The notes under the pieces are model-generated. The model saw nothing but the letters and a program-made list of their open reading frames with translations. It was not told where the DNA came from and searched no databases. A DNA stretch of 64,000 bases from the NCBI RefSeq assembly GCF_030384885.1, contig NZ_CP128613.1. The stretch is one strand, 5' to 3'. The translations under genes were made by a program, and so were the position numbers. Of this stretch, positions 1-45,696 are shown piece by piece. This stretch comes from Escherichia coli. GTDB taxonomy: Bacteria; Pseudomonadota; Gammaproteobacteria; Enterobacterales; Enterobacteriaceae. Numbering within the stretch: the first letter of the stretch is position 1; every line of letters starts with the position of its first letter.

Positions 1-314
<314 letters not shown>

Positions 315-315
<1 letters not shown>

Positions 316-950
316 TGTATCAGCCTGATTTTCCTCATGTACCTTTTCGTTTAGGACTGTACCCGGTAGTGGATAGCGTACAGTGGATCGAACGTCTGTT
401 GGATGCAGGCGTGCGTACTCTCCAGCTGCGCATCAAAGATCGGCGCGATGAAGAGGTTGAAGCCGATGTCGTGGCAGCAATTGCGCTGGGCCGCCGCTAT
501 AACGCGCGACTGTTTATCAACGATTACTGGCGGCTGGCGATTAAGCATCAGGCGTATGGCGTCCATCTGGGGCAGGAAGATTTGCAAGCCACCGATCTCA
601 ATGCCATCCGTGCAGCGGGCCTGCGGCTGGGCGTTTCGACTCATGATGATATGGAGATCGACGTCGCGCTGGCAGCACGTCCTTCTTATATCGCGCTAGG
701 ACATGTGTTCCCGACGCAAACCAAACAGATGCCTTCTGCACCGCAGGGGCTGGAACAGCTGGCACGGCATGTTGAGCGCCTGGCTGATTATCCCACTGTA
801 GCGATTGGCGGTATCAGCCTGCCGCGCGCACCTGCGGTGATGGCGACAGGTGTTGGCAGTATCGCCGTCGTCAGTGCCATTACCCAGGCCGCAGACTGGC
901 GTTTAGCAACGGAACAGTTGCTGGAGATTGCAGGAGTTGGCGATGAATGA
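315..950 (+). CDS. thiE: Thiamine-phosphate synthase
   Basis: 211-aa product starting MYQPDFP, recognised as ThiE; ATG overlaps the thiC stop (GTGATG); AGGAGG Shine-Dalgarno at 303-308. Confidence 0.9.
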
Positions 951-1698
951 CCGTGATTTTATGCGTTATAGCCGTCAAATCCTGCTCGACGATATTGCTC
1001 TTGACGGGCAGCAAAAACTGCTCGACAGCCAGGTGCTGATTATCGGTCTGGGTGGGTTGGGTACACCTGCTGCACTATACCTGGCGGGAGCTGGTGTCGG
1101 GACGCTGGTACTGGCAGATGACGACGATGTGCATTTGAGCAATCTGCAACGACAAATCCTCTTTACGACTGAAGATATCGATCGCCCGAAATCGCAGGTC
1201 AGCCAACAGCGACTGACACAGTTGAATCCCGACATTCAACTGACAGCATTACAACAACGGTTAACGGGTAAGGCGTTAAAAGATGCGGTAGCACGGGCCG
1301 ATGTGGTGCTCGACTGTACCGACAACATGGCGACTCGCCAGGAGATTAATGCCGCCTGCGTAGCACTTAACACACCGCTTATCACCGCCAGCGCGGTCGG
1401 ATTTGGTGGTCAGTTGATGGTGCTGACACCGCCCTGGGAACAGGGGTGTTACCGCTGCCTGTGGCCGGATAACCAGGAGCCTGAACGCAACTGCCGCACG
1501 GCAGGCGTGGTTGGCCCGGTGGTCGGGGTCATGGGCACGTTACAGGCACTGGAAGCAATTAAGCTATTGAGTGGTATAGAGACCCCTGCGGGATATCTTC
1601 GACTGTTTGACGGTAAATTAAACCAATGGCGCAACCTGGCGTTGCGCCGCGCCAGCGGTTGCCCGGTATGCGGAGGAAGCAATGCAGATCCTGTTTAA
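943..1698 (+). CDS. thiF: ThiS adenylyltransferase (E1-like, MoeB/ThiF family)
   Basis: Product [15 protein letters not shown]... with GLGGLG nucleotide-binding motif and C-terminal CxxC; start overlaps the thiE stop (ATGAATGA). Confidence 0.9.
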
Positions 1699-1882
1699 CG
1701 ATCAACCGATGCAGTGCGTCGCCGGACTAACTGTTCACGAACTGCTGGAGCAACTCGATCAACAACAAGCAGGTGCGGCACTGGCGATTAATCAGCAAAT
1801 CGTCCCGCGGGAACAATGGGCGCAACATATCGTGCAGGATGGCGACCAGATCCTGCTTTTTCAGGTTATTGCAGGGGGTTGA
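1682..1882 (+). CDS. thiS: Sulfur-carrier protein ThiS
   Basis: 66-aa product ending in Gly-Gly (..VIAGG), the hallmark of ThiS; overlaps the thiF 3' end. Confidence 0.9.
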
Positions 1883-1883
1883 G

Positions 1884-2654
1884 ATGTTACATATTGCGGA
1901 CAAAACGTTTGATTCACATCTGTTTACTGGCACCGGAAAATTCGCCTCTTCACAACTGATGGTGGAGTCTATTCGCGCTTCCGGCAGCCAACTGGTGACG
2001 CTGGCGATGAAACGTGTCGACTTGCGCCAGCACAACGACGCTATCCTCGAACCGCTTATCGCGGCGGGTGTGACCCTGCTGCCGAATACTTCCGGGGCGA
2101 AAACCGCGGAAGAAGCCATTTTCGCCGCCCATCTGGCACGTGAAGCGTTAGGCACAAACTGGCTAAAATTAGAGATTCACCCTGACGCCCGCTGGCTGTT
2201 GCCCGATCCCATCGAAACCCTGAAAGCCGCCGAAACGTTGGTGCAACAGGGATTTGTCGTGCTGCCTTACTGCGGTGCCGATCCGGTGTTGTGCAAACGT
2301 CTGGAAGAAGTCGGCTGTGCAGCGGTGATGCCGCTCGGCGCGCCGATTGGCTCGAATCAGGGACTGGAAACCCGCGCCATGCTGGAGATTATTATCCAGC
2401 AAGCCACGGTTCCGGTGGTCGTTGATGCTGGCATTGGCGTTCCCAGCCATGCCGCGCAGGCGCTTGAAATGGGAGCCGATGCGGTGTTAGTGAATACGGC
2501 GATTGCCGTCGCGGACGATCCCGTCAACATGGCGAAGGCATTTCGTCTGGCGGTAGACGCCGGCCTGCTGGCACGTCAGTCCGGGCCGGGCAGTCGCAGT
2601 CATTTTGCTCATGCCACTAGCCCGCTGACCGGATTTCTGGAGGCATCGGCATGA
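1884..2654 (+). CDS. thiG: Thiazole synthase
   Basis: 256-aa product starting [20 protein letters not shown]; ATG one nt after the thiS stop. The ORF-track upstream extension from 1773 is rejected. Confidence 0.9.
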
Positions 2655-3784
2655 AAACCTTCAGTGATCGCTGGCGACAACTGGACTGGGACGACATCCG
2701 CCTGCGAATCAACAGCAAAACGGCAGCTGACGTAGAGCGGGCGCTCAATGTTTCGCAACTCACTCGCGACGATATGATGGCATTGCTATCACCTGCCGCC
2801 GGTGAATACCTGGAACCACTGGCTCAACGGGCGCAGCGTCTGACCCGTCAGCGATTTGGCAACGTCGTCAGCTTCTACGTCCCGCTTTATCTTTCCAATC
2901 TTTGCGCTAACGACTGCACGTACTGCGGATTTTCCATGAGCAATCGCATCAAGCGTAAAACGCTGGATGAAGCGGATATCGCCAGGGAAAGCGCCGCTAT
3001 CCGGGAGATGGGCTTTGAACATCTATTGCTGGTCACTGGTGAACATCAGGCGAAAGTGGGGATGGATTACTTTCGTCGTCATCTCCCTGTCCTGCGTGAA
3101 CAGTTCTCTTCACTACAGATGGAAGTACAGCCACTGGCGGAAGCGGAATACGCCGAGTTAAAGCAACTTGGTCTGGATGGGGTGATGGTTTATCAGGAGA
3201 CATATCACGAGGCGACATACGCCCACCATCATCTGAAAGGGAAAAAACAGGACTTCTTCTGGCGGCTGGAAACGCCGGATCGGCTGGGCCGTGCGGGGAT
3301 AGATAAGATAGGCCTCGGCGCGCTAATCGGCCTTTCCGACAGCTGGCGCGTTGACTGCTATATGGTTGCCGAACATTTGCTATGGCTGCAACAACATTAC
3401 TGGCAAAGCCGTTACTCTGTCTCCTTCCCGCGCCTGCGCCCGTGTACTGGCGGGATTGAGCCAGCGTCGATTATGGATGAACGCCAGTTAGTGCAAACTA
3501 TCTGCGCCTTCCGCCTACTTGCGCCGGAGATTGAACTGTCACTCTCCACGCGGGAATCACCGTGGTTTCGCGATCGCGTTATTCCGCTGGCGATCAATAA
3601 CGTCAGCGCCTTCTCGAAAACGCAACCTGGTGGCTATGCCGACAATCATCCGGAGCTGGAGCAATTCTCACCGCACGACGATCGCAGGCCGGAAGCCGTT
3701 GCTGCTGCATTAACTGCTCAGGGTTTGCAGCCGGTATGGAAAGACTGGGACAGCTATCTGGGACGTGCCTCGCAAAGGACATGA
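2651..3784 (+). CDS. thiH: 2-iminoacetate synthase (tyrosine lyase), radical SAM
   Basis: 377-aa product with the radical-SAM cysteine motif CANDCTYC; ATGA overlap with the thiG stop. Confidence 0.92.
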
Positions 3785-3829
3785 GACAGAATGTAAGAAC
3801 GTAAATTTATTCCGAGCAGCTACGGAAGA

Positions 3830-3868
3830 TGAAAAACGCAAGGTTGTTGAAAGCGTTGCGTTTTTTTA
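3830..3868 (+). terminator. Putative intrinsic terminator after thiH
   Basis: Inverted repeat aacgcaa / ttgcgtt followed by a run of 7 T, about 50 nt after the thiH stop. Confidence 0.45.
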
Positions 3869-3977
3869 TGTTAGTACCGTCAGCAGGAATGTTGTCCAGG
3901 GCGAAAAGCTTCTTCCTCGTTTCGCCCTGCCTTTCTTAATATTTCCCATGAAGAATTTGCCCTCTGAATAACACCCA

Positions 3978-4005
3978 TAAAAAAACCCGCCGAAGCGGGT
4001 TTTTA
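3978..4005 (-). terminator. rpoC intrinsic terminator (hairpin usable in both directions)
   Basis: Stem acccgc / gcgggt with cgaa loop, flanked by an A-run and a T-run, immediately after the rpoC stop. Confidence 0.75.
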
Positions 4006-4025
4006 CGTTATTTGCGGATTAACGA

Positions 4026-7000
4026 TTACTCGTTATCAGAACCGCCCAGACCTGCGTTCAGCAGTTCTGCCAGGCTGGCAGATGCGTCTTCTGCAGTCAC
4101 CTGCGGTGCAGCCGGAGCTTCACCCGCAGCACGGCGACGCATACGATCCTGGTGGTACGCGTAACCGGTACCTGCCGGGATCAGACGACCTACGATAACG
4201 TTCTCTTTCAGGCCGCGCAGTTCGTCGCGTTTGCCCGCAACGGCTGCTTCGGTCAGCACGCGAGTGGTCTCCTGGAACGATGCCGCGGAGATGAAGGACT
4301 CGGTTGCCAGAGACGCTTTGGTGATACCCAGCAGATCGCGGGAGTAAGTTGCACCCACTTTGCCGTTCGCTTCCAGTTCGCGGTTTGCGATCTTGACGCG
4401 AGAGTATTCAACCTGTTCACCTTCCAGGAAGTCGGAGCTGCCCGCGTTAACGATGGTAGCTTTACGCAGCATCTGACGAACGATAACTTCGATGTGTTTA
4501 TCGTTAATCTTAACGCCCTGCAGACGGTATACGTCCTGTACTTCGTTAACGATGTAACGAGTCACAGCATGAACACCACGCAGACGCAGAATGTCATGCG
4601 GCGCTTCCGGACCATCGGAAATTACGTCACCACGTTCTACACGTTCACCTTCGAACACGTTGAGCTGACGCCATTTCGGAATCATCTCTTCGTACGGCTC
4701 GCTACCGTCTACCGGGGTGATAACCAGACGACGTTTACCTTTGGTTTCTTTACCGAAGGAAACCACACCGCTGATTTCAGCCAGGATTGCCGGCTCTTTC
4801 GGACGACGTGCTTCGAACAGGTCCGCAACGCGTGGCAGACCACCGGTGATGTCCTTGGTACCGCCAGATTCTTGCGGAATACGCGCCAGGGTGTCACCAG
4901 AGCTGATCTGTACGCCATCTTCCAGCTGAACAATCGCTTTACCCGGCAGGAAGTACTGCGCAGGCATGTCGGTACCCGGGATCAGAACGTCGTTACCCTG
5001 AGCATCAACGATTTTCAGTGCCGGACGCAGATCTTTACCACCTGCGGTACGTTCTGCGGAATCCAGAACCACCAGCGAAGACAGACCGGTCAATTCGTCG
5101 GTCTGACGAGTAATGGTCTGGCCGTCGATCATGTCAGTAAAGCGTACAAAACCGCTTACTTCGGTGATAACCGGCATGGTGTGCGGGTCCCAGTTTGCAA
5201 CGGTCTCGCCGCCAGCAACCTGTTCGCCATCGCCTTTCGCCAGTACTGCACCGTAAGGCACTTTATAGCTTTCTTTGGTACGACCGAATTCGTCGATCAA
5301 TTTCAGTTCGGTGTTACGGGAAGTGATAACCAGTTTGCCGCTGGAGTTCACAACCGACTTCACGTTGCTGAGCTTGATGCTACCTTTGTTTTTCACCTGG
5401 ATGCTGGATTCAGCAGCCGCACGAGATGCCGCACCACCGATGTGGAACGTACGCATGGTCAGCTGTGTACCCGGTTCACCGATGGACTGTGCCGCGATAA
5501 CACCGATTGCTTCACCTTTGTTGATGATGTGGCCACGCGCCAGGTCACGACCGTAGCAGTGCGCACATACACCAAAGTCGGTGTCACAAGATACAACAGA
5601 ACGTACTTTTACCGCGTCGACAGAGTTCTCTTCCAGCAGGTCACACCACTGTTCGTGCAGCAGCGTGTTGCGCGGAACGAGGATATCAGCAGTACCCGGC
5701 TTCAGAACGTCTTCAGCAGTTACACGACCCAGTACGCGATCGCGCAGCGGCTCTTTAACATCACCACCTTCGATAACCGGAGTCATCATGATACCTTCAT
5801 GAGTACCACAATCGTCTTCGGTAACCACCAGGTCCTGCGCCACGTCAACCAGACGACGAGTCAGGTAACCGGAGTTCGCAGTTTTCAGTGCGGTATCCGC
5901 CAGACCTTTACGAGCACCGTGGGTTGAGATGAAGTACTGGAGTACGTTCAGACCTTCACGGAAGTTCGCGGTGATTGGCGTTTCGATGATGGAGCCATCC
6001 GGCTTCGCCATCAGACCACGCATACCCGCCAGCTGACGAATCTGTGCCGCAGAACCACGCGCACCGGAGTCGGCCATCATGTAGATGCTGTTGAAGGAAA
6101 CCTGCTTCTCTTCCTGACCGTCACGGTTAATAACGGTTTCAGTTTGCAGATTATCCATCATCGCTTTGGATACACGATCGTTCGCCGCAGCCCAGATATC
6201 GATAACTTTGTTGTAGCGTTCGCCCGCAGTTACCAGACCAGACTGGAACTGCTCCTGAATCTCAGCAACTTCAGCTTCTGCCTCGGAGATGATTTCGTGT
6301 TTCTTCTCCGGGATGACCATGTCATCGATACCAACAGATGCACCAGAACGCGCTGCATATGCAAAGCCGGTGTACATGATCTGGTCCGCAAAAATAACGG
6401 TCGGTTTCAGACCGAGAATGCGGTAGCAGGTGTTCAGCATTTTGGAGATTGCTTTCTTACCCAGCGCCTGGTTGACAATGGAGTAAGGCAGACCTTTCGG
6501 TACAATCATCCACAGAATGGCACGGCCAACGGTCGTATCTTTCAGGCTGGTTTTCGCTACTAATTCACCGTTAGCATCTTTTTCATACTCGGTGATACGC
6601 ACTTTAACGCGCGCATGCAGAGAGGCCAGACCAGAGCGATACAGACGTTCTGCTTCTTTCGGGCCAGTCAGCACCATGCCTTCGCCTTTGGCGTTAACAC
6701 AGTCACGGGTCATGTAGTACAGACCCAGTACAACGTCCTGAGACGGAACGATGATTGGTTCGCCGTTCGCCGGGGACAGGATGTTGTTGGTAGACATCAT
6801 CAGCGCACGCGCTTCCAGCTGGGCTTCCAGCGTCAGCGGTACGTGAACAGCCATCTGGTCACCATCGAAGTCGGCGTTATATGCCGCACAAACCAGCGGG
6901 TGCAGCTGGATAGCTTTACCTTCGATCAGTACCGGTTCAAATGCCTGGATACCCAGACGGTGCAGAGTCGGTGCACGGTTCAGCAGTACCGGGTGTTCGC

Positions 7001-8249
7001 GGATAACTTCGTCCAGGATATCCCAAACGACAGCTTCTTCGCGCTCAACCATTTTCTTCGCAGCTTTAATGGTGGTAGCAAGACCACGCAGTTCCAGCTT
7101 GCCGTAGATGAACGGTTTGAACAGTTCCAGTGCCATTTTCTTCGGCAGACCGCACTGATGCAGACGCAGGTATGGACCTACGGTGATTACAGAACGACCG
7201 GAGTAGTCAACACGCTTACCGAGCAGGTTCTGACGGAAACGACCCTGTTTACCTTTGATCATGTCGGCCAAAGATTTCAGAGGACGCTTGTTAGAACCAG
7301 TGATCGCACGACCGCGACGACCGTTATCCAGCAGGGCGTCTACCGCTTCCTGCAGCATACGTTTTTCGTTACGTACGATGATGTCCGGCGCAGCCAGATC
7401 CAGCAGACGTTTGAGACGGTTGTTACGGTTAATGACGCGACGATACAGATCGTTCAGGTCAGAAGTCGCGAAACGACCACCATCCAGCGGAACCAGCGGA
7501 CGCAGATCTGGCGGCAGTACCGGCAGAACGGTCAGGATCATCCACTCTGGTTTGTTACCAGACTGAACGAACGCTTCCAGCAGTTTGATACGCTTGGTCA
7601 GCTTTTTACGCTTGGTTTCGGAGTTGGTTTCGTTCAGCTCTTCACGCAGCTGTTCGCACTCTTGCTCCAGATCCATGCTCTTCAGCAGAGCCTGGATTGC
7701 TTCCGCACCCATCTTCGCGTCGAATTCGTCACCGAACTCTTCCAGCGCATCCAGATACTGCTCTTCAGTCAGGATCTGCTGACGTTCCAGGTTGGTCATA
7801 CCGCCTTCGATAACTACATAGGATTCGAAGTACAGTACGCGTTCGATATCGCGCAGCGGCATATCGAGCAGCAGGCCGATACGGGACGGCAGCGATTTCA
7901 GGAACCAGATGTGCGCAGTCGGGGAAGCCAGTTCGATGTGGCCCATACGCTCACGACGTACTTTGGTCTGGGTCACTTCAACGCCGCACTTCTCACAGAT
8001 GACGCCACGGTGTTTCAGGCGCTTGTACTTACCGCACAGGCACTCGTAATCTTTTACCGGCCCAAAGATACGGGCGCAGAAAAGGCCGTCACGTTCTGGT
8101 TTGAACGTACGGTAGTTGATGGTTTCCGGCTTTTTAACTTCACCGAAAGACCATGAACGGATCATGTCTGGCGAAGCCAGAGCAATTTTGATCGCATCAA
8201 ACTCTTCGGTTTTAGTCTGCGCTTTCAGAAACTTTAATAAATCTTTCAC
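4026..8249 (-). CDS. rpoC: RNA polymerase beta-prime subunit
   Basis: 1407-aa ORF; product [33 protein letters not shown]... with NADFDGD catalytic motif. Confidence 0.97.
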
Positions 8250-8325
8250 GGATTTGCTCCCGTCGGAGTTAGCACAATCCGCTGCCGGGTTTTACCCCGA
8301 CAGCAGTGACCTGTTTGAGCGAGAA

Positions 8326-11300
8326 TTACTCGTCTTCCAGTTCGATGTTGATACCCAGCGAACGAATCTCTTTCAACAATACGTTGAAGGATTCTGGCAT
8401 GCCCGGCTCCATCTGATGGTTGCCGTCCACGATGTTTTTATACATCTTGGTACGACCGTTCACGTCATCAGACTTAACGGTGAGCATTTCCTGCAGGGTG
8501 TATGCTGCGCCGTATGCTTCCAGCGCCCACACTTCCATCTCCCCGAAACGCTGACCACCGAACTGTGCCTTACCACCCAGCGGCTGCTGAGTAACCAGGC
8601 TGTAAGAACCGGTGGAACGCGCGTGCATCTTGTCGTCGACCAGGTGGTTCAGTTTCAGCATGTACATGTAACCCACGGTTACCGGACGTTCGAACTGTTC
8701 ACCAGTGCGACCGTCGTACAGGCGGATCTGACCAGAAGTCGGCAGGTCGCCAAGTTTCAGCAGTTCTTTAATTTCTGCTTCTTTCGCACCGTCGAAGACC
8801 GGCGTTGCGATTGGCATACCTTTGCGCAGGTTTTCAGCCAGACGCATAACTTCTTCATCGCTGAAGGTACTCAGGTCAACTTTCTGACGAACGTCAGCGC
8901 CCAGATCGTATGCACGCTGGATGAATTCGCGCAGTTTCGCGACTTCTTGCTGCTGTTTCAGCATGGCGTTGATCTTGTCGCCGATACCTTTCGCAGCCAT
9001 ACCCAGGTGGGTTTCGAGGATCTGACCGATGTTCATACGAGACGGTACGCCCAGCGGGTTCAGTACGATGTCTACCGGCGTACCGTTTTCATCGTAAGGC
9101 ATATCTTCGATCGGGTTGATCTTAGAAATTACACCCTTGTTACCGTGACGACCTGCCATCTTGTCACCAGGCTGGATACGGCGTTTAACCGCCAGATATA
9201 CCTTAACAATCTTCAGCACGCCCGGTGCCAGATCGTCGCCCTGGGTGATTTTGCGGCGTTTCGCTTCGAGTTTCTTCTCGAACTCGTGTTTCAGTTCGTC
9301 ATACTGCTCAGCCAGCTGTTCCAGCTGATTTTGTTTCTCTTCGTCGGTCAGGCCCAGCTCTAGCCAGCGATCGCGCGGCAGTTTGTCGAGCTTCTCAGCT
9401 TCAACGCCACCGGCTACCAGCACAGCACGGATACGGCTGAACAGACCCGCTTCGAGGATCTGCAGTTCTTCAGACAGGTCTTTCTTCGCCTGTTTGAGCT
9501 GCATTTCTTCGATTTCCAGCGCACGTTTGTCTTTTTCTACGCCATCGCGAGTAAAGACCTGAACGTCGATAACCGTACCGGATACACCGTTTGGTACACG
9601 CAGAGAAGAGTCTTTAACGTCAGACGCTTTCTCACCGAAGATCGCACGCAGCAGTTTCTCTTCTGGAGTCAGCTGGGTTTCACCTTTCGGCGTTACCTTA
9701 CCAACCAGAATGTCGCCACCGGTCACTTCCGCACCAATGTAAACGATACCGGATTCATCCAGTTTGGAGAGCGCAGCTTCACCTACGTTCGGGATGTCAG
9801 CAGTGATCTCTTCTGGCCCCAGCTTGGTGTCACGGGACACACATGCCAGTTCCTGAATGTGGATGGTGGTGAAACGGTCTTCCTGAACAACACGCTCGGA
9901 TACGAGGATGGAGTCTTCGAAGTTGTAACCATTCCACGGCATGAACGCTACGCGCATGTTCTGACCGAGCGCCAGTTCACCGAGATCGGTGGACGGACCG
10001 TCTGCCAGCACGTCGCCGCGCTCTACCGGTTCACCCAGAGACACACACGGCATCTGGTTGATACAGGTGTTCTGGTTAGAACGGGTGTATTTGGTCAGGT
10101 TGTAGATGTCGATACCCGCTTCGCCCGGATACATCTCGTCTTCGTTAACTTTGATAACGATACGGGAAGCATCCACGTACTGAACGACACCACCACGTTT
10201 AGCAACCGCAGTTACACCGGAGTCAACGGCAACAGCACGTTCCATACCCGTACCAACCAGCGGCTTATCAGCACGCAGAGTCGGAACGGCCTGACGTTGC
10301 ATGTTCGCACCCATCAATGCACGGTTGGCGTCATCGTGTTCAAGGAACGGGATCAGGGACGCACCGACGGATACCACCTGCTGGGTGGATACGTCCATGT
10401 AGTCAACCTGGTCGCGGCTGAACAAGCTGGATTCGCCTTTGCTACGGCAAGTTACCAGGTCTTCTACGAAGTGGCCTTCTTCATCCAGGTTGGAGTTCGC
10501 CTGGGCGATAACGTAGTTGCCTTCTTCGATAGCAGACAGGTAGTGAATTTCGTCGGTTACAACACCGTCGATCACTTTACGGTACGGCGTCTCAAGGAAG
10601 CCATATTCGTTAGTCTGTGCGTACACGGACAGGGAGTTGATCAGACCGATGTTCGGGCCTTCAGGAGTTTCGATTGGACATACGCGACCGTAGTGAGTCG
10701 GGTGTACGTCTCGAACTTCGAAGCCTGCACGTTCACGGGTCAGACCGCCTGGGCCGAGTGCGGAGATACGACGCTTGTGCGTAATCTCAGACAGCGGGTT
10801 GTTCTGGTCCATAAACTGAGACAGCTGGCTGGAACCAAAGAACTCTTTCACTGCTGCGGAAATCGGTTTGGCGTTGATCATATCCTGAGGCATCAGGGTA
10901 TCCAGATCGCCCAGAGACAAACGCTCTTTCACCGCACGCTCTACACGTACCAGGCCAACGCGGAACTGGTTTTCCGCCATTTCGCCAACGGAACGGATAC
11001 GACGGTTACCGAGGTGGTCGATATCATCGACTTCGCCTTTACCGTTACGGATATCGATGAGCTTTTTCATAACATCAATGATGTCGTCTTTGCTCAGGAT
11101 ACCGGAACCTTCGATTTCGTCGCGCAGCAGAGAGCGGTTGAACTTCATACGACCAACCGCAGACAAGTCATAGCGGTCTTCGGAGAAGAACAGGTTCTCG
11201 AACAGGCTTTCAGCGGCTTCACGAGTCGGCGGCTCGCCAGGGCGCATCATGCGGTAGATTTCTACCAGTGCGCTCAGACGGTCGTTAGTTGGGTCGACAC

Positions 11301-12600: not shown

Positions 12601-12634
12601 CGCAAAAAGGCTGGTGACTAAAAAGTCACCAGCC
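12601..12634 (-). terminator. rplL-rpoB intercistronic attenuator (partial terminator)
   Basis: Perfect 10-bp inverted repeat ggctggtgac / gtcaccagcc with a 6-nt loop, followed on the minus strand by a U-run; lies between rplL and rpoB where the known attenuator sits. Confidence 0.6.
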
Positions 12635-12673
12635 ATCAGCCTGATTTCTCAGGCTGCAACCGGAAGGGTTGGC

Positions 12674-17769: not shown

Positions 17770-17845
17770 TGGTGCTGATAGGCAGATTCGAACTGCCGAC
17801 CTCACCCTTACCAAGGGTGCGCTCTACCAACTGAGCTATATCAGC
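17770..17845 (-). tRNA. thrT: tRNA-Thr
   Basis: Reverse complement reads GCTGATATAGCTCAGTTGGTAGAGC...CCA; 76 nt. Confidence 0.9.
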
Positions 17846-17851
17846 ACATCT

Positions 17852-17926
<75 letters not shown>

Positions 17927-18042
17927 ATCCTGGAACTCGGCTACCTGATTTTCATTCTGCACTGAATATCGAGAGAAGCTCTCTTTATTCGAGCCGGTAA
18001 GCGAACTTATCGTCTCGGGCTACGCCATCGCGTGGCCGAAAT

Positions 18043-18127
<85 letters not shown>

Positions 18128-18135
18128 GGACTTGA

Positions 18136-18211
<76 letters not shown>

Positions 18212-21676: not shown

Positions 21677-21796
21677 ATGCCTGGCAGTTCCCTACTCTCG
21701 CATGGGGAGACCCCACACTACCATCGGCGCTACGGCGTTTCACTTCTGAGTTCGGCATGGGGTCAGGTGGGACCACCGCGCTAAGGCCGCCAGGCA
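21677..21796 (-). rRNA. rrfB: 5S ribosomal RNA
   Basis: 120 nt; reverse complement reads TGCCTGGCGGCCTTAGCGCGGTGGTCCCACCTGACCCCATGCCGAACTCAGAAGTGAAACGCC...GGGAACTGCCAGGCAT. Confidence 0.95.
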
Positions 21797-21894
21797 AATT
21801 CTGTTTATCAACACGTCATGTTCTGACCTGTCGATGTCATCTGTATCAAGCTTACTTGTCGATGTCTCTTCCGCCAAAACATCTTCGGCGTTGT

Positions 21895-24799
<2,905 letters not shown>

Positions 24800-24983
24800 T
24801 CACAACCCGAAGATGTTTCTTGCGATTCATCATCGTGTTGCGAAAATTTGAGAGACTCACGAACAACTTTCGTTGTTCAGTGTTTCAATTTTCAGCTTGA
24901 TCCAGATTTTTAAAGAGCAAATATCTTAAACATGACTCGTAAGTCATCTTTAACGATATCAAGGTCGGCGACTTTCACTCACA

Positions 24984-25059
24984 AACCAGCAAGTGGCGTC
25001 CCCTAGGGGATTCGAACCCCTGTTACCGCCGTGAAAGGGCGGTGTCCTGGGCCTCTAGA
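24984..25059 (-). tRNA. gltT: tRNA-Glu (16S-23S spacer tRNA)
   Basis: Reverse complement reads GTCCCCTTCGTCTAGAGGCCCAGGACACCGCCCTTTCACGGCGGTAACAGGGGTTCGAATCCCCTAGGGGACGCCA. Confidence 0.92.
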
Positions 25060-25154
25060 CGAAGGGGACGTATCAGTCTGCTTCGCAAGACGCCTTGCTT
25101 TTCACTTTTCATCAGACAATCTGTGTGAGCACTGCAAAGTACAGTTCTTTAAGG

Positions 25155-26696
<1,542 letters not shown>

Positions 26697-29715: not shown

Positions 29716-29955
29716 TGTAAAGCATCCACAATAGAAGAAGGATGCCGCAGGCTTCATCAATATTACGCGATGATGAGAACCAGATGCGACGTTAGCCGGC
29801 AGGTCTTCGGGCTTGGAGGGGTATATAAAATACTAAGAGATGATGACTTCCCACCGGATGGCAGTGTCCGCATAACGCAATCATCGCACCTTTCCTTACC
29901 GCTGCGCGTCAGCTCCAGATTTGCACTGGATTCCCTATTAACTCACAGGACCGGC
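29716..29955 (-). ncRNA. Cobalamin (adenosylcobalamin) riboswitch in the btuB 5' leader
   Basis: About 240-nt leader; minus strand begins GCCGGTCCTGTGAGTTAATAGGGAATCCAGTGCAAATCTGGAGCTGACGCGCAGCGGTAAGGAAAGGTGCG..., matching the known btuB leader. Confidence 0.8.
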
Positions 29956-30083
29956 GAGTGGATGCTACAGGTTGTAACAAGTTGCTGTCCAGACGTAGCT
30001 CACAAATAGGAATACATCAAGATCTGGACATCTGATGAGCAATCCCTACAATCGCCGCGTACATTTCATTTTCAGGATACATC

Positions 30084-34960: not shown

Positions 34961-35073
34961 GAAACGGAGCGGCACCTCTTTTAACCCTTGAAGTCACTGC
35001 CCGTTTCGAGAGTTTCTCAACTCGAATAACTAAAGCCAACGTGAACTTTTGCGGATCTCCAGGATCCGCTTTT
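34961..35073 (+). ncRNA. oxyS: OxyS small regulatory RNA
   Basis: Reads GAAACGGAGCGGCACCTCTTTTAACCCTTGAAGTCACTGCCCGTTTCGAGAGTTTCTCAACTCG...GCGGATCTCCAGGATCCGCTTTTTTTT, matching OxyS including its terminal hairpin and U-run; divergent from oxyR. The 3' end is approximate. Confidence 0.88.
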
Positions 35074-39599: not shown

Positions 39600-40376
39600 T
39601 TAAGCTAAAATCCGCGTACCCATCGGCATACCGTTAAACAGTGCCGGAAGCTGTTCCGCATGACGCCAGGAGGCAATATCTACCGGGCGACCCAGCGTGC
39701 GCGCAGCGTCCAGCGCCGCGTTCACTTTCACTATCATGCCGTCAGTAATAATGCCCTGCTCAATCAGTTGTTCTGCTTTCGCTGCGGTCATTTCGGCAAT
39801 ACGTTGCCCTTTGCCGTCGAGAATACCGCTGACATCAGAGAGCAAAATCAGATCCGCGCCCAGCGTTGCCGCCAGCGCCGTCGCCGCCTGGTCAGCATTG
39901 ACGTTCATCAGTTGCCCTTCGTCCGTTACGCCAATGGAGCTGACCACTGGTAGATAACCGTTTTCCAGCAACGTGTTGATAAGCTTAGGCGAACCTGGCT
40001 GCGCCAGTCCAACATGGCCTAACTCTTCATCGAGCTGGGTCACTTTTACGCTGTCGCCGTCACCGAGAAACAAACCTACGGCTGCAATCTGATGTTTCTT
40101 CGCCCATGCCAGCAGGGTTTTATTTGCCGTTCCCGCCAGCGCTCCGGTGATAATGTCTATCTGATCCGCAGGCGTCACCCGCAGGCCGTTTTTCTTTTTC
40201 ACCGGCAGATTCAGTCCTTTCATCAGCTCATCCACCACGCAGCCGCCGCCGTGGACAATCACCAGCGGACGCTGATGTGACTCGCGATAATTCACCAGGG
40301 CGCTAAACAGACGTTCCAGCGCCTCTTCACTATCCAGCAGTACGCCGCCCAGTTTGATAATTAATGGATTCATCAT
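39600..40376 (-). CDS. argB: Acetylglutamate kinase
   Basis: 258-aa product from [24 protein letters not shown]...; the 11-codon upstream extension is rejected. Confidence 0.92.
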
Positions 40377-40383
40377 TGCACCC

Positions 40384-41388
40384 CTAAATAAGAGACTGCG
40401 TTTCCGCATAGCCGAAACGAATATTGGCGCACTGTACCGCTTGTGCTGCCGCGCCTTTCAATAAGTTGTCTTCGGTCGCCACAATAATCAGATGTTCCCC
40501 CTGAACGGCAAAACCGATATCGCAGAACGGCAGCCCGACGACATTTTTCAGCGCCGGAACGCCTTTGTCATACAACCGTACCAGCGGTTTATGGGCATAC
40601 GCCTGCTGTAACGCTTGCGCGACTTGCGCCTGGTTCACGCCAGGCTTCAGGCGGCAGGTAATGGTTTCGAGAATGCCGCGCGGGAAATTGCCCAGATGCG
40701 GGGTAAAAATAACGTCAGCACCGAGATGCGTGGCGATCTCCGGCTGGTGGCGATGGGTAAAGACACCATACGGTTGCAGGCTAACTTCACAAAAACTATT
40801 TGAAATCGCTGCCTTACGTCCTGCTCCGCTCACACCACTGGTGGCGTTGATAACCGGCCACTGATTGAGGTCAAGAAGATCGGCATCAATCAACGGTTTC
40901 AGCGCCAATTGCGCCGCCGTCGGATAACAGCCAGGCACCGCAATTAAGTTCGCTTCTTTTAATTTATGACCGCACCACTCCGCCAGACCGTAAGCTGCCT
41001 GTTCCAACAGTTCCGGGTATTGATGGCTAAAGCCGTAATATTTTTCATAGAAGGTGGCGTCGTTAACACGAAACGCGCCGGAAAGGTCGAACACCACACA
41101 GCCCGCTTCAAGAAATTGTGGCGCTAAATCGTGACTAACTTCATGGGCAGTAGCAAGAAACACCACGTCCACCCCTGGGCTAAACTCACTGATATCCGAC
41201 ATCGGCTGCAACGGCAGATCAACGATGCCTTTTAGCTGCGGATGCAAATCGGAGATTAACTTTCCCGCATCATTGCTTTGCGCTGAAACAGTCAAAGCGG
41301 TTATGTTCATATGCGGATGGCGATTTACATAGGTCACTAGCTCTGCGCCAGCGTAACCGCTGGCACCCACAATCAGCGTATTCAACAT
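40384..41388 (-). CDS. argC: N-acetyl-gamma-glutamyl-phosphate reductase
   Basis: 334-aa product [43 protein letters not shown]... Confidence 0.95.
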
Positions 41389-41541
41389 CGGGGCTATTCA
41401 CCTTCTTATGTCTGGTTGCCTGGTTAAACGTAAAACATTCACCTTACGGCTGGTGGGTTTTATTACGCTCAACGTTAGTGTATTTTTATTCACAAATACT
41501 GCATGAATATTGATACTATCATGACCAGAGGTGTGTCAACA
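41389..41541. promoter_or_regulatory. Divergent argE / argCBH control region with ArgR operator (ARG boxes)
   Basis: A/T-rich spacer between divergent argC and argE containing ...tttttattcacaaatactgcatgaatattgatactatcatga..., with TGAAT/ATTCA-type ARG-box repeats; assignment follows the known argECBH bipolar operon. Confidence 0.6.
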
Positions 41542-42693
41542 ATGAAAAACAAATTACCGCCATTTATCGAGATTTACCGTGCTCTGATTGCCACACCTTC
41601 AATAAGCGCCACGGAAGAGGCACTCGATCAAAGCAATGCAGATTTAATCACTCTGCTGGCGGACTGGTTTAAAGATTTGGGCTTCAATGTGGAAGTGCAG
41701 CCCGTGCCGGGAACTCGCAACAAATTTAATATGCTGGCAAGTACCGGACAGGGAGCTGGCGGTTTGCTGCTGGCGGGGCATACCGATACGGTGCCATTTG
41801 ATGACGGCCGCTGGACGCGCGATCCGTTTACGCTGACGGAGCATGACGGCAAGCTTTACGGCTTAGGCACCGCCGACATGAAAGGCTTTTTTGCGTTTAT
41901 CCTCGATGCACTACGCGATGTCGACGTCACGAAACTGAAAAAACCGCTCTACATTCTGGCGACTGCCGATGAAGAGACCAGTATGGCAGGAGCGCGTTAT
42001 TTTGCCGAAACTACCGCCCTGCGCCCGGATTGCGCCATCATTGGCGAACCGACGTCGCTGCAACCGGTACGCGCGCATAAAGGCCATATCTCGAACGCCA
42101 TCCGTATTCAGGGCCAGTCGGGGCACTCCAGCGATCCAGCACGCGGAGTTAACGCGATCGAATTGATGCACGACGCCATCGGGCATATTTTGCAATTGCG
42201 CGATAATCTGAAAGAACGTTATCACTACGAAGCATTTACCGTGCCATACCCTACGCTCAACCTCGGGCATATTCACGGTGGCGATGCATCTAACCGTATT
42301 TGCGCTTGCTGTGAGTTGCATATGGATATTCGTCCGTTGCCAGGCATGACACTCAATGAACTTAATGGTTTGCTCAACGATGCATTGGCTCCGGTGAGCG
42401 AACGCTGGCCGGGTCGTCTGACGGTCGACGAGCTGCATCCACCGATCCCTGGCTATGAATGCCCACCGAATCATCAACTGGTTGAAGTGGTTGAGAAATT
42501 GCTCGGAGCAAAGACCGAAGTAGTGAACTACTGTACCGAAGCGCCGTTTATTCAGACGTTATGCCCGACGCTGGTGCTGGGACCTGGCTCAATTAATCAG
42601 GCTCATCAGCCTGATGAATACCTGGAGACACGGTTTATCAAGCCCACCCGCGAACTGATCACCCAGGTGATTCACCATTTCTGCTGGCATTAA
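41542..42693 (+). CDS. argE: Acetylornithine deacetylase
   Basis: 383-aa product from [43 protein letters not shown]...; the upstream ATG at 41503 is rejected. Confidence 0.92.
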
Positions 42694-42696
42694 AAC

Positions 42697-42800
42697 GTAG
42701 TCCGGATAAGGCGCTCGCGCCGCATCCGGCACTGTTGCCAAACTCCAGCACCGCAATAATGTCGGATGCGATGCTTGCGCATCTTATCCGACCTACACCT
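42697..42800. repeat. REP/BIME repetitive extragenic palindromes between argE and ppc
   Basis: Two canonical REP units (gtagtccggataaggcgctcgcgccgcatccggcact and tgtcggatgcgatgcttgcgcatcttatccgacctac). Confidence 0.65.
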
Positions 42801-43044
42801 TTGGTGTTACTCAAGGCGATTTTTTAACATTTCCATAAGTTACGCTTATTTAAAGCGTCGTGAATTTAATGGCGTAAATTCCTGCTATTTATTCGTTTGC
42901 TGAAGCGATTTCGCAGCATTTGACGTCATCGCTTTTACGTGGCTTTATAAAAGACGACGAAAAGCAAAGCCCGAGCATATTCGCGCCAATGCGACGTGAA
43001 GGATACAGGGCTATCAAACGATAAGATGGGGTGTCTGGGGTAAT

Positions 43045-45696
43045 ATGAACGAACAATATTCCGCATTGCGTAGTAATGTCAGTATGCTCGGCAAAGTGCT
43101 GGGGGAAACCATCAAGGATGCGTTGGGAGAACACATTCTTGAACGCGTAGAAACTATCCGTAAGTTGTCCAAATCTTCACGCGCTGGCAATGATGCTAAC
43201 CGCCAGGAGTTGCTCACCACTTTACAAAATTTGTCGAACGACGAGCTGCTGCCCGTTGCGCGTGCGTTTAGTCAGTTCCTGAACCTGGCCAACACCGCTG
43301 AGCAATACCACAGCATTTCGCCGAAAGGCGAAGCTGCCAGCAACCCGGAAGTGATCGCCCGCACCCTGCGTAAACTGAAAAACCAGCCGGAACTGAGCGA
43401 AGACACCATCAAAAAAGCAGTTGAATCGCTGTCGCTGGAACTGGTCCTCACGGCTCACCCAACCGAAATTACCCGTCGTACGCTGATCCACAAAATGGTG
43501 GAAGTGAACGCCTGCTTAAAACAGCTCGACAACAAAGATATCGCCGACTACGAACATAACCAGCTGATGCGCCGCCTGCGCCAGTTGATCGCCCAGTCAT
43601 GGCATACCGATGAAATCCGTAAGCTGCGCCCAAGCCCGGTAGATGAGGCCAAATGGGGCTTTGCCGTAGTAGAAAACAGCCTGTGGCAAGGCGTACCGAA
43701 TTACCTGCGCGAACTGAACGAACAACTGGAAGAGAACCTCGGCTACAAACTACCCGTCGAATTTGTTCCGGTGCGTTTTACCTCGTGGATGGGCGGCGAC
43801 CGCGACGGAAACCCGAACGTCACTGCCGATATCACCCGCCACGTCCTGCTGCTCAGCCGCTGGAAAGCCACCGATCTGTTCCTGAAAGATATTCAAGTTC
43901 TGGTTTCTGAACTGTCGATGGTTGAAGCAACTCCGGAACTGCTGGCGCTGGTCGGCGAAGAAGGTGCCGCAGAACCGTATCGCTATCTGATGAAAAACCT
44001 GCGTTCCCGCTTGATGGCGACACAGGCATGGCTGGAAGCGCGCCTGAAAGGTGAAGAAGTACCAAAACCAGAGGGTCTGCTGACGCAGAACGAAGAACTG
44101 TGGGAGCCGCTCTACGCTTGCTACCAGTCCCTTCAGGCGTGTGGCATGGGTATTATTGCCAACGGCGATCTGCTCGACACCCTGCGCCGCGTGAAATGTT
44201 TCGGTGTACCGCTGGTCCGTATTGATATCCGTCAGGAGAGCACCCGTCATACCGAAGCGCTGGGCGAACTGACCCGCTACCTCGGCATCGGCGACTACGA
44301 AAGCTGGTCAGAGGCCGACAAACAGGCGTTCCTGATCCGCGAACTGAACTCCAAACGCCCTCTTCTGCCGCGTAACTGGCAACCGAGCGCCGAAACGCGC
44401 GAAGTACTTGATACCTGTCAGGTAATTGCTGAAGCACCGCAAGGTTCCATTGCCGCCTACGTGATCTCGATGGCAAAAACGCCGTCCGACGTCCTGGCTG
44501 TACACCTGCTGCTGAAAGAAGCGGGTATTGGATTTGCGATGCCGGTTGCACCGCTGTTTGAAACCCTTGATGACCTGAACAACGCCAACGATGTCATGAC
44601 CCAGTTGCTCAATATCGACTGGTATCGCGGCCTGATTCAGGGCAAACAGATGGTGATGATTGGCTATTCCGACTCAGCAAAAGATGCGGGGGTGATGGCG
44701 GCTTCCTGGGCGCAATATCAGGCACAGGATGCATTAATCAAAACCTGCGAAAAAGCGGGTATTGAACTGACGCTGTTCCACGGCCGCGGCGGTTCCATTG
44801 GTCGCGGCGGCGCACCTGCCCATGCGGCGCTGCTGTCACAACCGCCAGGAAGCCTGAAAGGCGGCCTTCGCGTGACCGAACAGGGCGAGATGATCCGCTT
44901 TAAATATGGTCTGCCAGAAATCACTGTTAGCAGCCTGTCGCTGTACACCGGGGCAATTCTGGAAGCCAACCTGCTGCCACCGCCGGAGCCGAAAGAGAGC
45001 TGGCGTCGCATTATGGATGAACTGTCAGTCATCTCCTGCGATCTCTACCGTGGCTACGTACGTGAAAACAAAGATTTTGTGCCGTACTTCCGCTCCGCTA
45101 CGCCGGAACAAGAGCTGGGCAAACTGCCGTTGGGTTCACGTCCGGCGAAACGTCGCCCGACCGGCGGCGTCGAGTCACTGCGCGCCATTCCGTGGATTTT
45201 TGCCTGGACACAAAACCGCCTGATGCTCCCCGCCTGGCTGGGTGCAGGTACGGCGCTGCAAAAAGTGGTCGAAGATGGCAAGCAGAGCGAACTGGAAGCC
45301 ATGTGCCGCGACTGGCCATTCTTCTCGACGCGTCTCGGCATGCTGGAGATGGTCTTCGCCAAAGCAGACCTGTGGCTGGCGGAATACTATGATCAACGTC
45401 TGGTAGACAAAGCATTGTGGCCGTTAGGTAAAGAGTTACGTAATCTGCAAGAAGAAGACATCAAAGTGGTGCTGGCGATTGCCAACGATTCTCACCTGAT
45501 GGCCGATCTGCCGTGGATTGCGGAGTCTATTCAGCTGCGAAATATTTACACCGACCCACTGAACGTATTGCAGGCCGAGTTGCTGCACCGCTCCCGCCAG
45601 GCAGAAAAAGAAGGCCAGGAACCGGATCCTCGCGTCGAGCAAGCGTTAATGGTTACTATTGCCGGGATTGCGGCAGGTATGCGTAATACCGGCTAA
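43045..45696 (+). CDS. ppc: Phosphoenolpyruvate carboxylase
   Basis: 883-aa product [40 protein letters not shown]... ending ...GMRNTG. Confidence 0.97.

Follow-up and report, generated by a model that had tools for sequence, protein, structure and literature searches.

The 64-kb stretch of Escherichia coli DNA analyzed here (hereafter the window) carries, between the stop codons of the convergent genes thiH and rpoC, an interval of exactly 241 bp (3785..4025, measured from the list of open reading frames (ORFs) of the window and its sequence) that is devoid of the gene yjaZ found at this position in the laboratory strain K-12. The reading that we favor, to which we assign a probability of roughly 0.8, is that this interval is the ancestral, unoccupied form of the region; that the block bearing yjaZ and the small RNA gene sroH is an old, single insertion carried by other genomes; and that the strain is empty at this site and has no copy at any other. 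The original prediction had correctly recognized the 241-bp distance (thiH and rpoC end at 3784 and 4026) and the absence of yjaZ from it, and had offered either a lineage-specific loss or a gain specific to K-12 as the cause. The former is not supported, as the same empty allele is found in 1,630 E. coli genomes as well as in E. albertii and E. ruysiae, and the latter is refuted by the wide occurrence of yjaZ, both of which are described below.

Searches of the full 64-kb window with nine diverse YjaZ homologues using tblastn recovered no similarity (all E > 1), the interval included in all of its frames, and no ORF coding for YjaZ is present on the rpoC strand between rpoC and thiH. Similarly, the SroH family (Rfam RF00372) has no match in the window, either at the gathering threshold or at E<=1. 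As controls, the K-12 YjaZ protein scored 430 bits against NF007263, and K-12 sroH scored 201 bits against RF00372.

Outgroup alleles and the 920-bp block of K-12

In K-12 MG1655 the corresponding interval spans 1,161 bp (4189574..4190734) and holds two genes: yjaZ (b3989), which is 540 bp long and shares the strand of rpoC, and sroH (b4691), which is 161 nt long and shares that of thiH. This gives the order rpoC-yjaZ-sroH-thiH (b3988-b3989-b4691-b3990) with the same arrangement of the flanking genes as in the window. Thus, the original prediction had the position and strand of yjaZ in K-12 right but omitted sroH. Alignment of the two regions established that the K-12 spacer is not ~240 bp in length and that the entire net difference of 920 bp is one contiguous extra block within the spacer, no part of which is present in the window. 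The two sequences align cleanly on either side of it: the thiH-side terminator and the GC-rich hairpin next to it are conserved save for a single substitution in the terminator stem, and the rpoC terminator sequence is the same in both.

To determine the polarity of this difference we used thiH-rpoC loci from other Escherichia that were obtained via the members of the ThiH protein cluster. In the contigs with ThiH proteins under the labels E. albertii and E. ruysiae, thiH and rpoC are separated by precisely 241 bp with no insert, and the same holds for the B2 E. coli strain E2348/69. The empty alleles of these three lineages and the window align end to end with zero gaps, with the interval of E2348/69 being 96.3%, that of E. 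albertii 93.4% and that of E. ruysiae 94.2% identical to that of the window, while rpoC is 96-97% identical to the window across the same three lineages. The divergence of the contigs labelled E. albertii and E. ruysiae is compatible with their being separate species. Since the divergence of the empty alleles tracks that of the lineages, each was inherited independently from a common ancestral arrangement rather than recently exchanged. The B2 allele, as seen in E2348/69, clone D i2 and ATCC 25922, shares with the window the length of 241 bp, the three hairpins, the junction and the lack of any annotation in the gap, and differs from it by a few substitutions that fall mostly in 3945-3973; the flanking thiH genes are only 94% identical because the window comes from the cryptic clade I of Escherichia (see below). 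Neither tblastn nor Rfam searches revealed traces of yjaZ or sroH in the window interval, and we observed none of the marks of a deletion scar: there are no truncated genes, and the junction is orthologous to the outgroup sequence. Given that the outgroups match the window in both junction and length, and that neither remnants nor repeats that might have guided a deletion are found, the empty 241-bp state is, on these sequence comparisons, ancestral, and the block was inserted later.

The block itself, as represented in K-12, contains in succession a promoter-like site for sroH (TTGTAA-17-TATGAT), sroH, a hairpin common to the convergent sroH and yjaZ, yjaZ, and ~210 bp upstream of yjaZ; its coding content is limited to yjaZ and sroH. 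With a GC content of 41.5%, as against 54-55% for thiH and rpoC, it is compositionally foreign by this measure. The insertion point in K-12-type genomes maps to around 3950-3956 of the window, where it is unoccupied, and in the filled allele both flanking terminators are intact. The block displays none of the hallmarks of a transposon, insertion sequence (IS) or integrase-driven island: there are no terminal inverted repeats, no significant duplication and no recombinase gene. A match of ~14 nt between its flanks (TTTCTTAAAAATTC / TTCCTTAAATATTC) is not significant, with 20 of 179 control windows scoring as high or higher; we accordingly rejected it both as a target-site duplication and as a guide for deletion. 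An 11-nt imperfect direct repeat (D6), which is a two-copy match, was treated as being at chance level.

The filled alleles measure 1,161 bp in K-12, 1,162 bp in FDAARGOS_1288, 1,090 bp in O157 and 1,161 bp in strain E69, and have the same boundaries in every one of these cases. This identity of the boundaries indicates, at the level of sequence, a single insertion event behind the filled alleles. The lower length of the O157 allele reflects the loss of 71 bp from yjaZ (nt 401-471 of the gene), which shifts its frame to yield a 147-aa product annotated as 'HtrC' (1501-1944 of the locus of E. coli O157 180-PT54); the adjoining sroH is 100% identical to that of K-12.

We next examined the frequencies of the two states in a set of 5,426 complete E. 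coli genomes. DNA of yjaZ is present in 3,738 of them (69%) and sroH in 3,740; these near-equal counts indicate that the two genes are inherited together. The window junction, represented by a 120-nt probe matched over its full length, occurs in 1,630 genomes (30%), including the B2 strains E2348/69, clone D i2 and Seattle 1946 (ATCC 25922). By calculation from the yjaZ and junction counts, about 58 genomes have neither allele. Part of this pattern has been recorded before: sroH was found to be missing in B2+D, ATCC 8739, S. flexneri and S. sonnei Ss046 (Skippington and Ragan, 2012; Table 1, sroH row; PMC3318445), in a study that did not tie it to yjaZ or to plasmid-borne copies. Hence, the presence-absence polymorphism of yjaZ and sroH as such is ordinary and was already known. 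When Escherichia outgroups are taken into account, the B2+D pattern of sroH is to be read as a gain by the complementary branch.

Taken together, these observations would fit a history in which the ancestral interval consisted of the two convergent terminators of the thiCEFSGH and rpoBC operons, a further hairpin that is conserved, and a short spacer that is variable. The 920-bp block would have been inserted once into this spacer, damaging neither terminator. The inserted unit would have comprised yjaZ with its promoter, a shared bidirectional terminator, and the convergent sroH with its own promoter; the insertion would be old, its descendants now occupying ~69% of the complete E. coli genomes. 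We infer, rather than observe, both the mechanism of the original insertion and the part of this history that has the clade I lineage never carrying the block, as opposed to having had it swapped out by homologous recombination.

Lineage of the strain and alternative histories

The window matches the chromosome of E. coli 2013C-4282 (NZ_CP027579.1) at 100% identity, and this strain and EC42405, whose thiH is a 99.9% match to that of the window, are listed among the Escherichia cryptic clade I strains (Okuno et al., 2023; PMC10100065). Consistent with this placement, the thi operon (window 1-3784) and a second locus 36 kb away, ppc-argECB (window 40001-44000), are 92-96.5% identical to mainstream E. 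coli; at ppc-argECB no mainstream strain exceeds 96.5%, and identity of 99% or more is reached by only 16 of the 5,426 genomes. The 15 closest relatives by thiH in the complete-genome set, EC42405 among them, are all devoid of the cassette. Contigs with a ThiH labelled E. fergusonii, including the chromosome CP079891.1, are 97-99.5% identical to the window across the thi-rpoC region and are also empty; either clade I and E. fergusonii share an allele family or these assemblies are mislabelled. The combination of this 99% 'E. fergusonii' match with a plasmid encoding saa, ehxA and espP had raised the idea of a B1-type Shiga toxin-producing E. coli that acquired its empty allele from E. fergusonii. 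This idea was dropped in light of the identity of at most 96.5% to mainstream strains at the second locus and the published assignment to cryptic clade I.

A number of points weigh against the favored reading. First, the outgroup sample is a handful of genomes, the species labels of which are protein names taken from the source database, and the 'E. fergusonii'-labelled loci were excluded as independent outgroups since their labels are unconfirmed. Second, although the restriction of close YjaZ to a single genome among 100,044 species representatives, 'E. coli' E69 (CP089930.1), favors our reading, that genome complicates it. Despite its label, the rpoC of E69 is 99.0% identical to that of E. 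ruysiae, which marks it as a cryptic-clade, ruysiae-like strain; nevertheless, its thiH-rpoC site is filled, with boundaries matching those of the other filled alleles, while that of the E. ruysiae contigs is unoccupied, so that the polymorphism spans lineages of species rank. Its yjaZ is 8.7% diverged from that of K-12, while its sroH is 98.8% identical. The E69 allele thus implies that the filled state is old or was exchanged between lineages through homologous recombination, if not both, and this age or mobility leaves room for an ancestor of clade I to have lost the block by allelic replacement. Third, the cassette is present in three genomes whose thiH allele is clade-I-like (97.7%). Fourth, the published reconstruction, made with no outgroup, scored the absence of sroH on the B2+D branch as a loss (Skippington and Ragan, 2012; PMC3318445). 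Finally, the search of the chromosome for a second copy has a bounded reach, as noted below.

These points bear foremost on a secondary loss, in which the clade I ancestor possessed the block and had it replaced by an imported empty allele through recombination in the conserved rpoC and thiH flanks. The occurrence of the filled allele with the same boundaries in E. coli groups A, B1 and E, in the group D strain 042 and in E69 calls for either exchange or great age. Moreover, the thiH alleles, unlike rpoC, differ to a similar extent (92-94% identity) in every comparison between Escherichia lineages, a star-like pattern that fits frequent recombination, and the three cassette-bearing genomes with clade-I-like thiH fit as well. 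Against this stand the lack of any positive sign of import, the uniformly empty state of the 15 closest thiH relatives and the similar distance of the strain to mainstream E. coli (~96% identity) at this locus and at the one 36 kb away, which implies that the region is not a local mosaic. Even were such a replacement to have occurred, the window allele would still be the ancestral sequence and not the product of a deletion. We hence regard allelic replacement as improbable, though less so than the other alternatives.

A de novo deletion of yjaZ and sroH in the lineage of the window would account for the genes being present in K-12 and missing here, and would agree with the published scoring of sroH absences as losses. 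It would, however, need to arrive, base for base, at the length of 241 bp and the junction seen in E. albertii, E. ruysiae and B2, with no significant repeats to guide it and no remnants left behind, and the same allele is present in 1,630 genomes. This makes it very unlikely.

We place the relocation of yjaZ to another locus or a plasmid of the strain at a comparably low level. Its attraction is that YjaZ homologues are plasmid-borne in other bacteria. The 5.03-Mb chromosome NZ_CP027579.1 was searched by sensitive blastn with a chimeric probe that joins the window thiH to K-12 yjaZ and sroH in a non-native orientation, thereby preventing joined matches; the probe matched once, at thiH, and neither yjaZ nor sroH was found. 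The same search picked up plasmid copies of 60-80% identity in other genomes, and a chromosomal YjaZ homologue below ~65% nucleotide identity would lie beyond its reach. On the two plasmids of 2013C-4282, NZ_CP027580.1 and NZ_CP027581.1 (54.5 kb and 118.8 kb, both searched whole), tblastn with the nine homologues found no match, as in the window, with the positive controls working, and no product of the YjaZ type is annotated on either. The gene thus appears to be absent from the rest of the genome, a point that the original prediction had proposed to check. A gain specific to K-12 or its laboratory lineage has nothing in its favor beyond the contrast between K-12 and the window and is hardly credible, given yjaZ in 3,738 of 5,426 genomes from many hosts and pathotypes and additionally in E69.

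yjaZ and sroH as a candidate mobile cassette

The proposed htrC function of yjaZ (formerly htrC) has been retracted, and SroH has been described as 'under-characterised' (PMC11551758; PMC6172242). YjaZ (NF007263 / PF27200) shows a patchy distribution, with homologues of 47-78% identity in E. coli, Salmonella, Raoultella, Pantoea, Serratia, Aeromonas, Oceanimonas and cyanobacteria. Outside of the thiH-rpoC gap these are found in mobile contexts: for instance, one adjoins a HigB-type toxin-antitoxin pair on an 88-kb replicon, while another is on a Salmonella element along with an N6 methyltransferase and PcfJ. Further neighbors include umuDC-like genes, ParA and an integrase, and two 5-kb ColE1-type plasmids also carry the gene. 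In all, a relative is found in 559 plasmid records and in no phage record.

In each of the 12 loci with sufficient flanking sequence, an sroH (RF00372) match is convergent to the YjaZ gene and lies a few to ~20 nt from its stop codon. These loci cover K-12 (5787-6488 of the locus), plasmids, mobile elements, Aeromonas (E = 1e-15) and a cyanobacterium (E = 2e-14). This constant adjacency is the basis for our reading that yjaZ and sroH appear, from sequence, to form one mobile protein-RNA cassette. On two plasmid-like replicons (1-2849 and 1-2829 of the respective loci) the yjaZ-sroH pair is divergent to a conserved block of four genes (coding for ~263, 255, 328 and 208 aa) with no Pfam matches; these two loci are collinear over 3.7 kb with 69% nucleotide identity. 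Separately, around 540 plasmids of Klebsiella, Enterobacter and Citrobacter code for a distant YjaZ-like 'hypothetical protein' of ~29% identity. In the K. pneumoniae plasmid pKPS13 (70632-71195) such a gene adjoins a restriction endonuclease gene and lies between IS elements. No sroH was detected beside the distant YjaZ-like plasmid proteins (28-36% identity).

SroH is a structured RNA of ~150 nt with invariant single-stranded blocks and hairpins that show compensatory changes. We counted 11 compensatory pairs, as against 3.9 ± 1.4 in shuffled alignments (0 of 500 reach the observed value) and 0-4 when the pairing partners were slid. Three invariant G·U pairs indicate that the fold is specific to the sroH strand. 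Within E. coli it varies less than its partner: identity of 99% or more is seen in 3,734 of 3,742 records of sroH but in only 2,943 of 3,738 of yjaZ. We also considered if sroH might code for a small protein and rejected this, as the 29-aa ORF of K-12 starts in a non-conserved region, while the frame that opens at the ATG in an invariant block meets a stop after five codons in one of the loci (L007) and is broken by inserts of variable length.

Sequence searches offered no clue to the function of YjaZ: neither the single sequence nor a profile has a match in Pfam, PADLOC, PHROGs or the sequences of the PDB. The 179-aa protein yields a confident structural model, and the only neighbors of the predicted fold, all of them weak, are ribonuclease toxins of the RelE/ParE/HigB type. 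A functional partnership between YjaZ and SroH is a reasonable hypothesis; a role akin to that of a toxin-antitoxin system is speculation. We also entertained, as a rather doubtful extension, that the pair is a self-contained mobile module of obligate partners, such as an RNA-controlled addiction or defense system or a protein that binds or processes SroH, for which the thiH-rpoC gap serves as a recurrent landing pad.

Architecture and significance of the thiH-rpoC gap

The annotation of NZ_CP027579.1 by the Prokaryotic Genome Annotation Pipeline (PGAP) presents thiCEFSGH followed by rpoC, with no feature between thiH and rpoC. The gene thiH (2651..3784, plus strand), the last of the thiCEFSGH operon, is a 377-aa ORF specifying 2-iminoacetate synthase and is 93.3% identical in nucleotide sequence to its K-12 counterpart. 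On the other side, rpoC (4026..8249, minus strand), a 1407-aa ORF for the beta' subunit of RNA polymerase, is 98.4% identical to that of K-12 over its 3' 2 kb. Both are annotated as such in NZ_CP027579.1.

We found three hairpins in the interval, one more than the two of the original prediction. The first, at 3832..3867 on the plus strand, is the predicted intrinsic terminator on the thiH side, with a stem ACGCAA/TTGCGT extended by A/T pairs, a 14-nt loop and a run of 7 T. It is present in both the minimum-free-energy and the centroid folds and is kept in K-12, E69, E. albertii and E. ruysiae; the consensus terminator scan passed over it on account of its loop exceeding 8 nt. The second, at 3897..3929 (plus strand), is a GC-rich hairpin seen in the fold, with a CAGGGCGAAA / TTTCGCCCTG stem, a 13-nt loop and a T-rich stretch after it. 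It is unchanged across all of the aligned Escherichia alleles, both filled and empty, and is possibly a second terminator. Between these and the last hairpin, alignments of the empty and filled alleles delineate a hypervariable spacer of ~30 nt (3945..3973), which varies more than any other part of the interval among the empty alleles of the four lineages. The third hairpin, at 3979..4004 on the minus strand, is the predicted intrinsic terminator of rpoC and thereby of the rpoBC operon. Its GC-rich stem CCCGC/GCGGG of five G-C pairs encloses the loop CGAA; it was matched by the scan at 3981-4004, is supported by the minus-strand fold, and a run of 7 U follows it on the rpoC strand, as does one of 5 T on the opposite strand. 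Because of these runs on both strands it looks bidirectional.

The 68-aa plus-strand ORF at 3765..3971 is not a gene: it opens with a GTG inside thiH in another frame and is not annotated by PGAP. We concur with its rejection in the original prediction, as the GTG is confined to the lineage of the window, the position being GCC or GCG in B2, E. albertii and E. ruysiae, and the GTG is likewise missing in K-12; the frame is open only because the hairpin DNA is conserved. The accompanying statement that no minus-strand ORF exists needs a slight amendment in that a 43-aa ORF (3710..3841) overlaps the edge of the interval, and it holds insofar as none codes for YjaZ. No Rfam family exceeds its threshold within the 241 bp, and a permissive scan gave sub-threshold matches only, anchored on the rpoC terminator hairpin, which we discounted. 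Elsewhere in the window Rfam matches include the P26 family (12608-12669), a tRNA cluster (17773-18211), an rRNA operon with StyR-44 (21679-26696), a cobalamin riboswitch (29781-29970) and OxyS (34961-35070), in agreement with a K-12-like rpoBC-rrn-btuB-oxyR neighborhood.

The same gap is occupied in Salmonella enterica by a 2.3-kb islet of 33.5% GC (7135-9478 of the locus) with a gene of the SseK/NleB family, which we take to be sseK1 (STM4157), and small ORFs. Salmonella keeps the thiH-side terminator (68% identical over window 3737-3871). In contrast to the window, which has no insert, it bears cargo unrelated to that of K-12 and a different rpoC terminator, and its insertion point is not comparable. 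The islet shows that the gap tolerates insertions, and that it has accepted unrelated foreign DNA at least twice.

The interval of the window would thus be nothing out of the ordinary for a cryptic clade I E. coli, an ancestral intergenic region that carries little weight by itself, and the absence of yjaZ next to rpoBC a common and catalogued state rather than a notable loss. K-12 is a misleading yardstick in this case as it would have the derived state, and the outgroups would reverse the published 'loss' of sroH on the B2+D branch. The only part that might merit follow-up is the apparent linkage of yjaZ and sroH in one cassette, which provides an experimental lead for two orphan genes of K-12.
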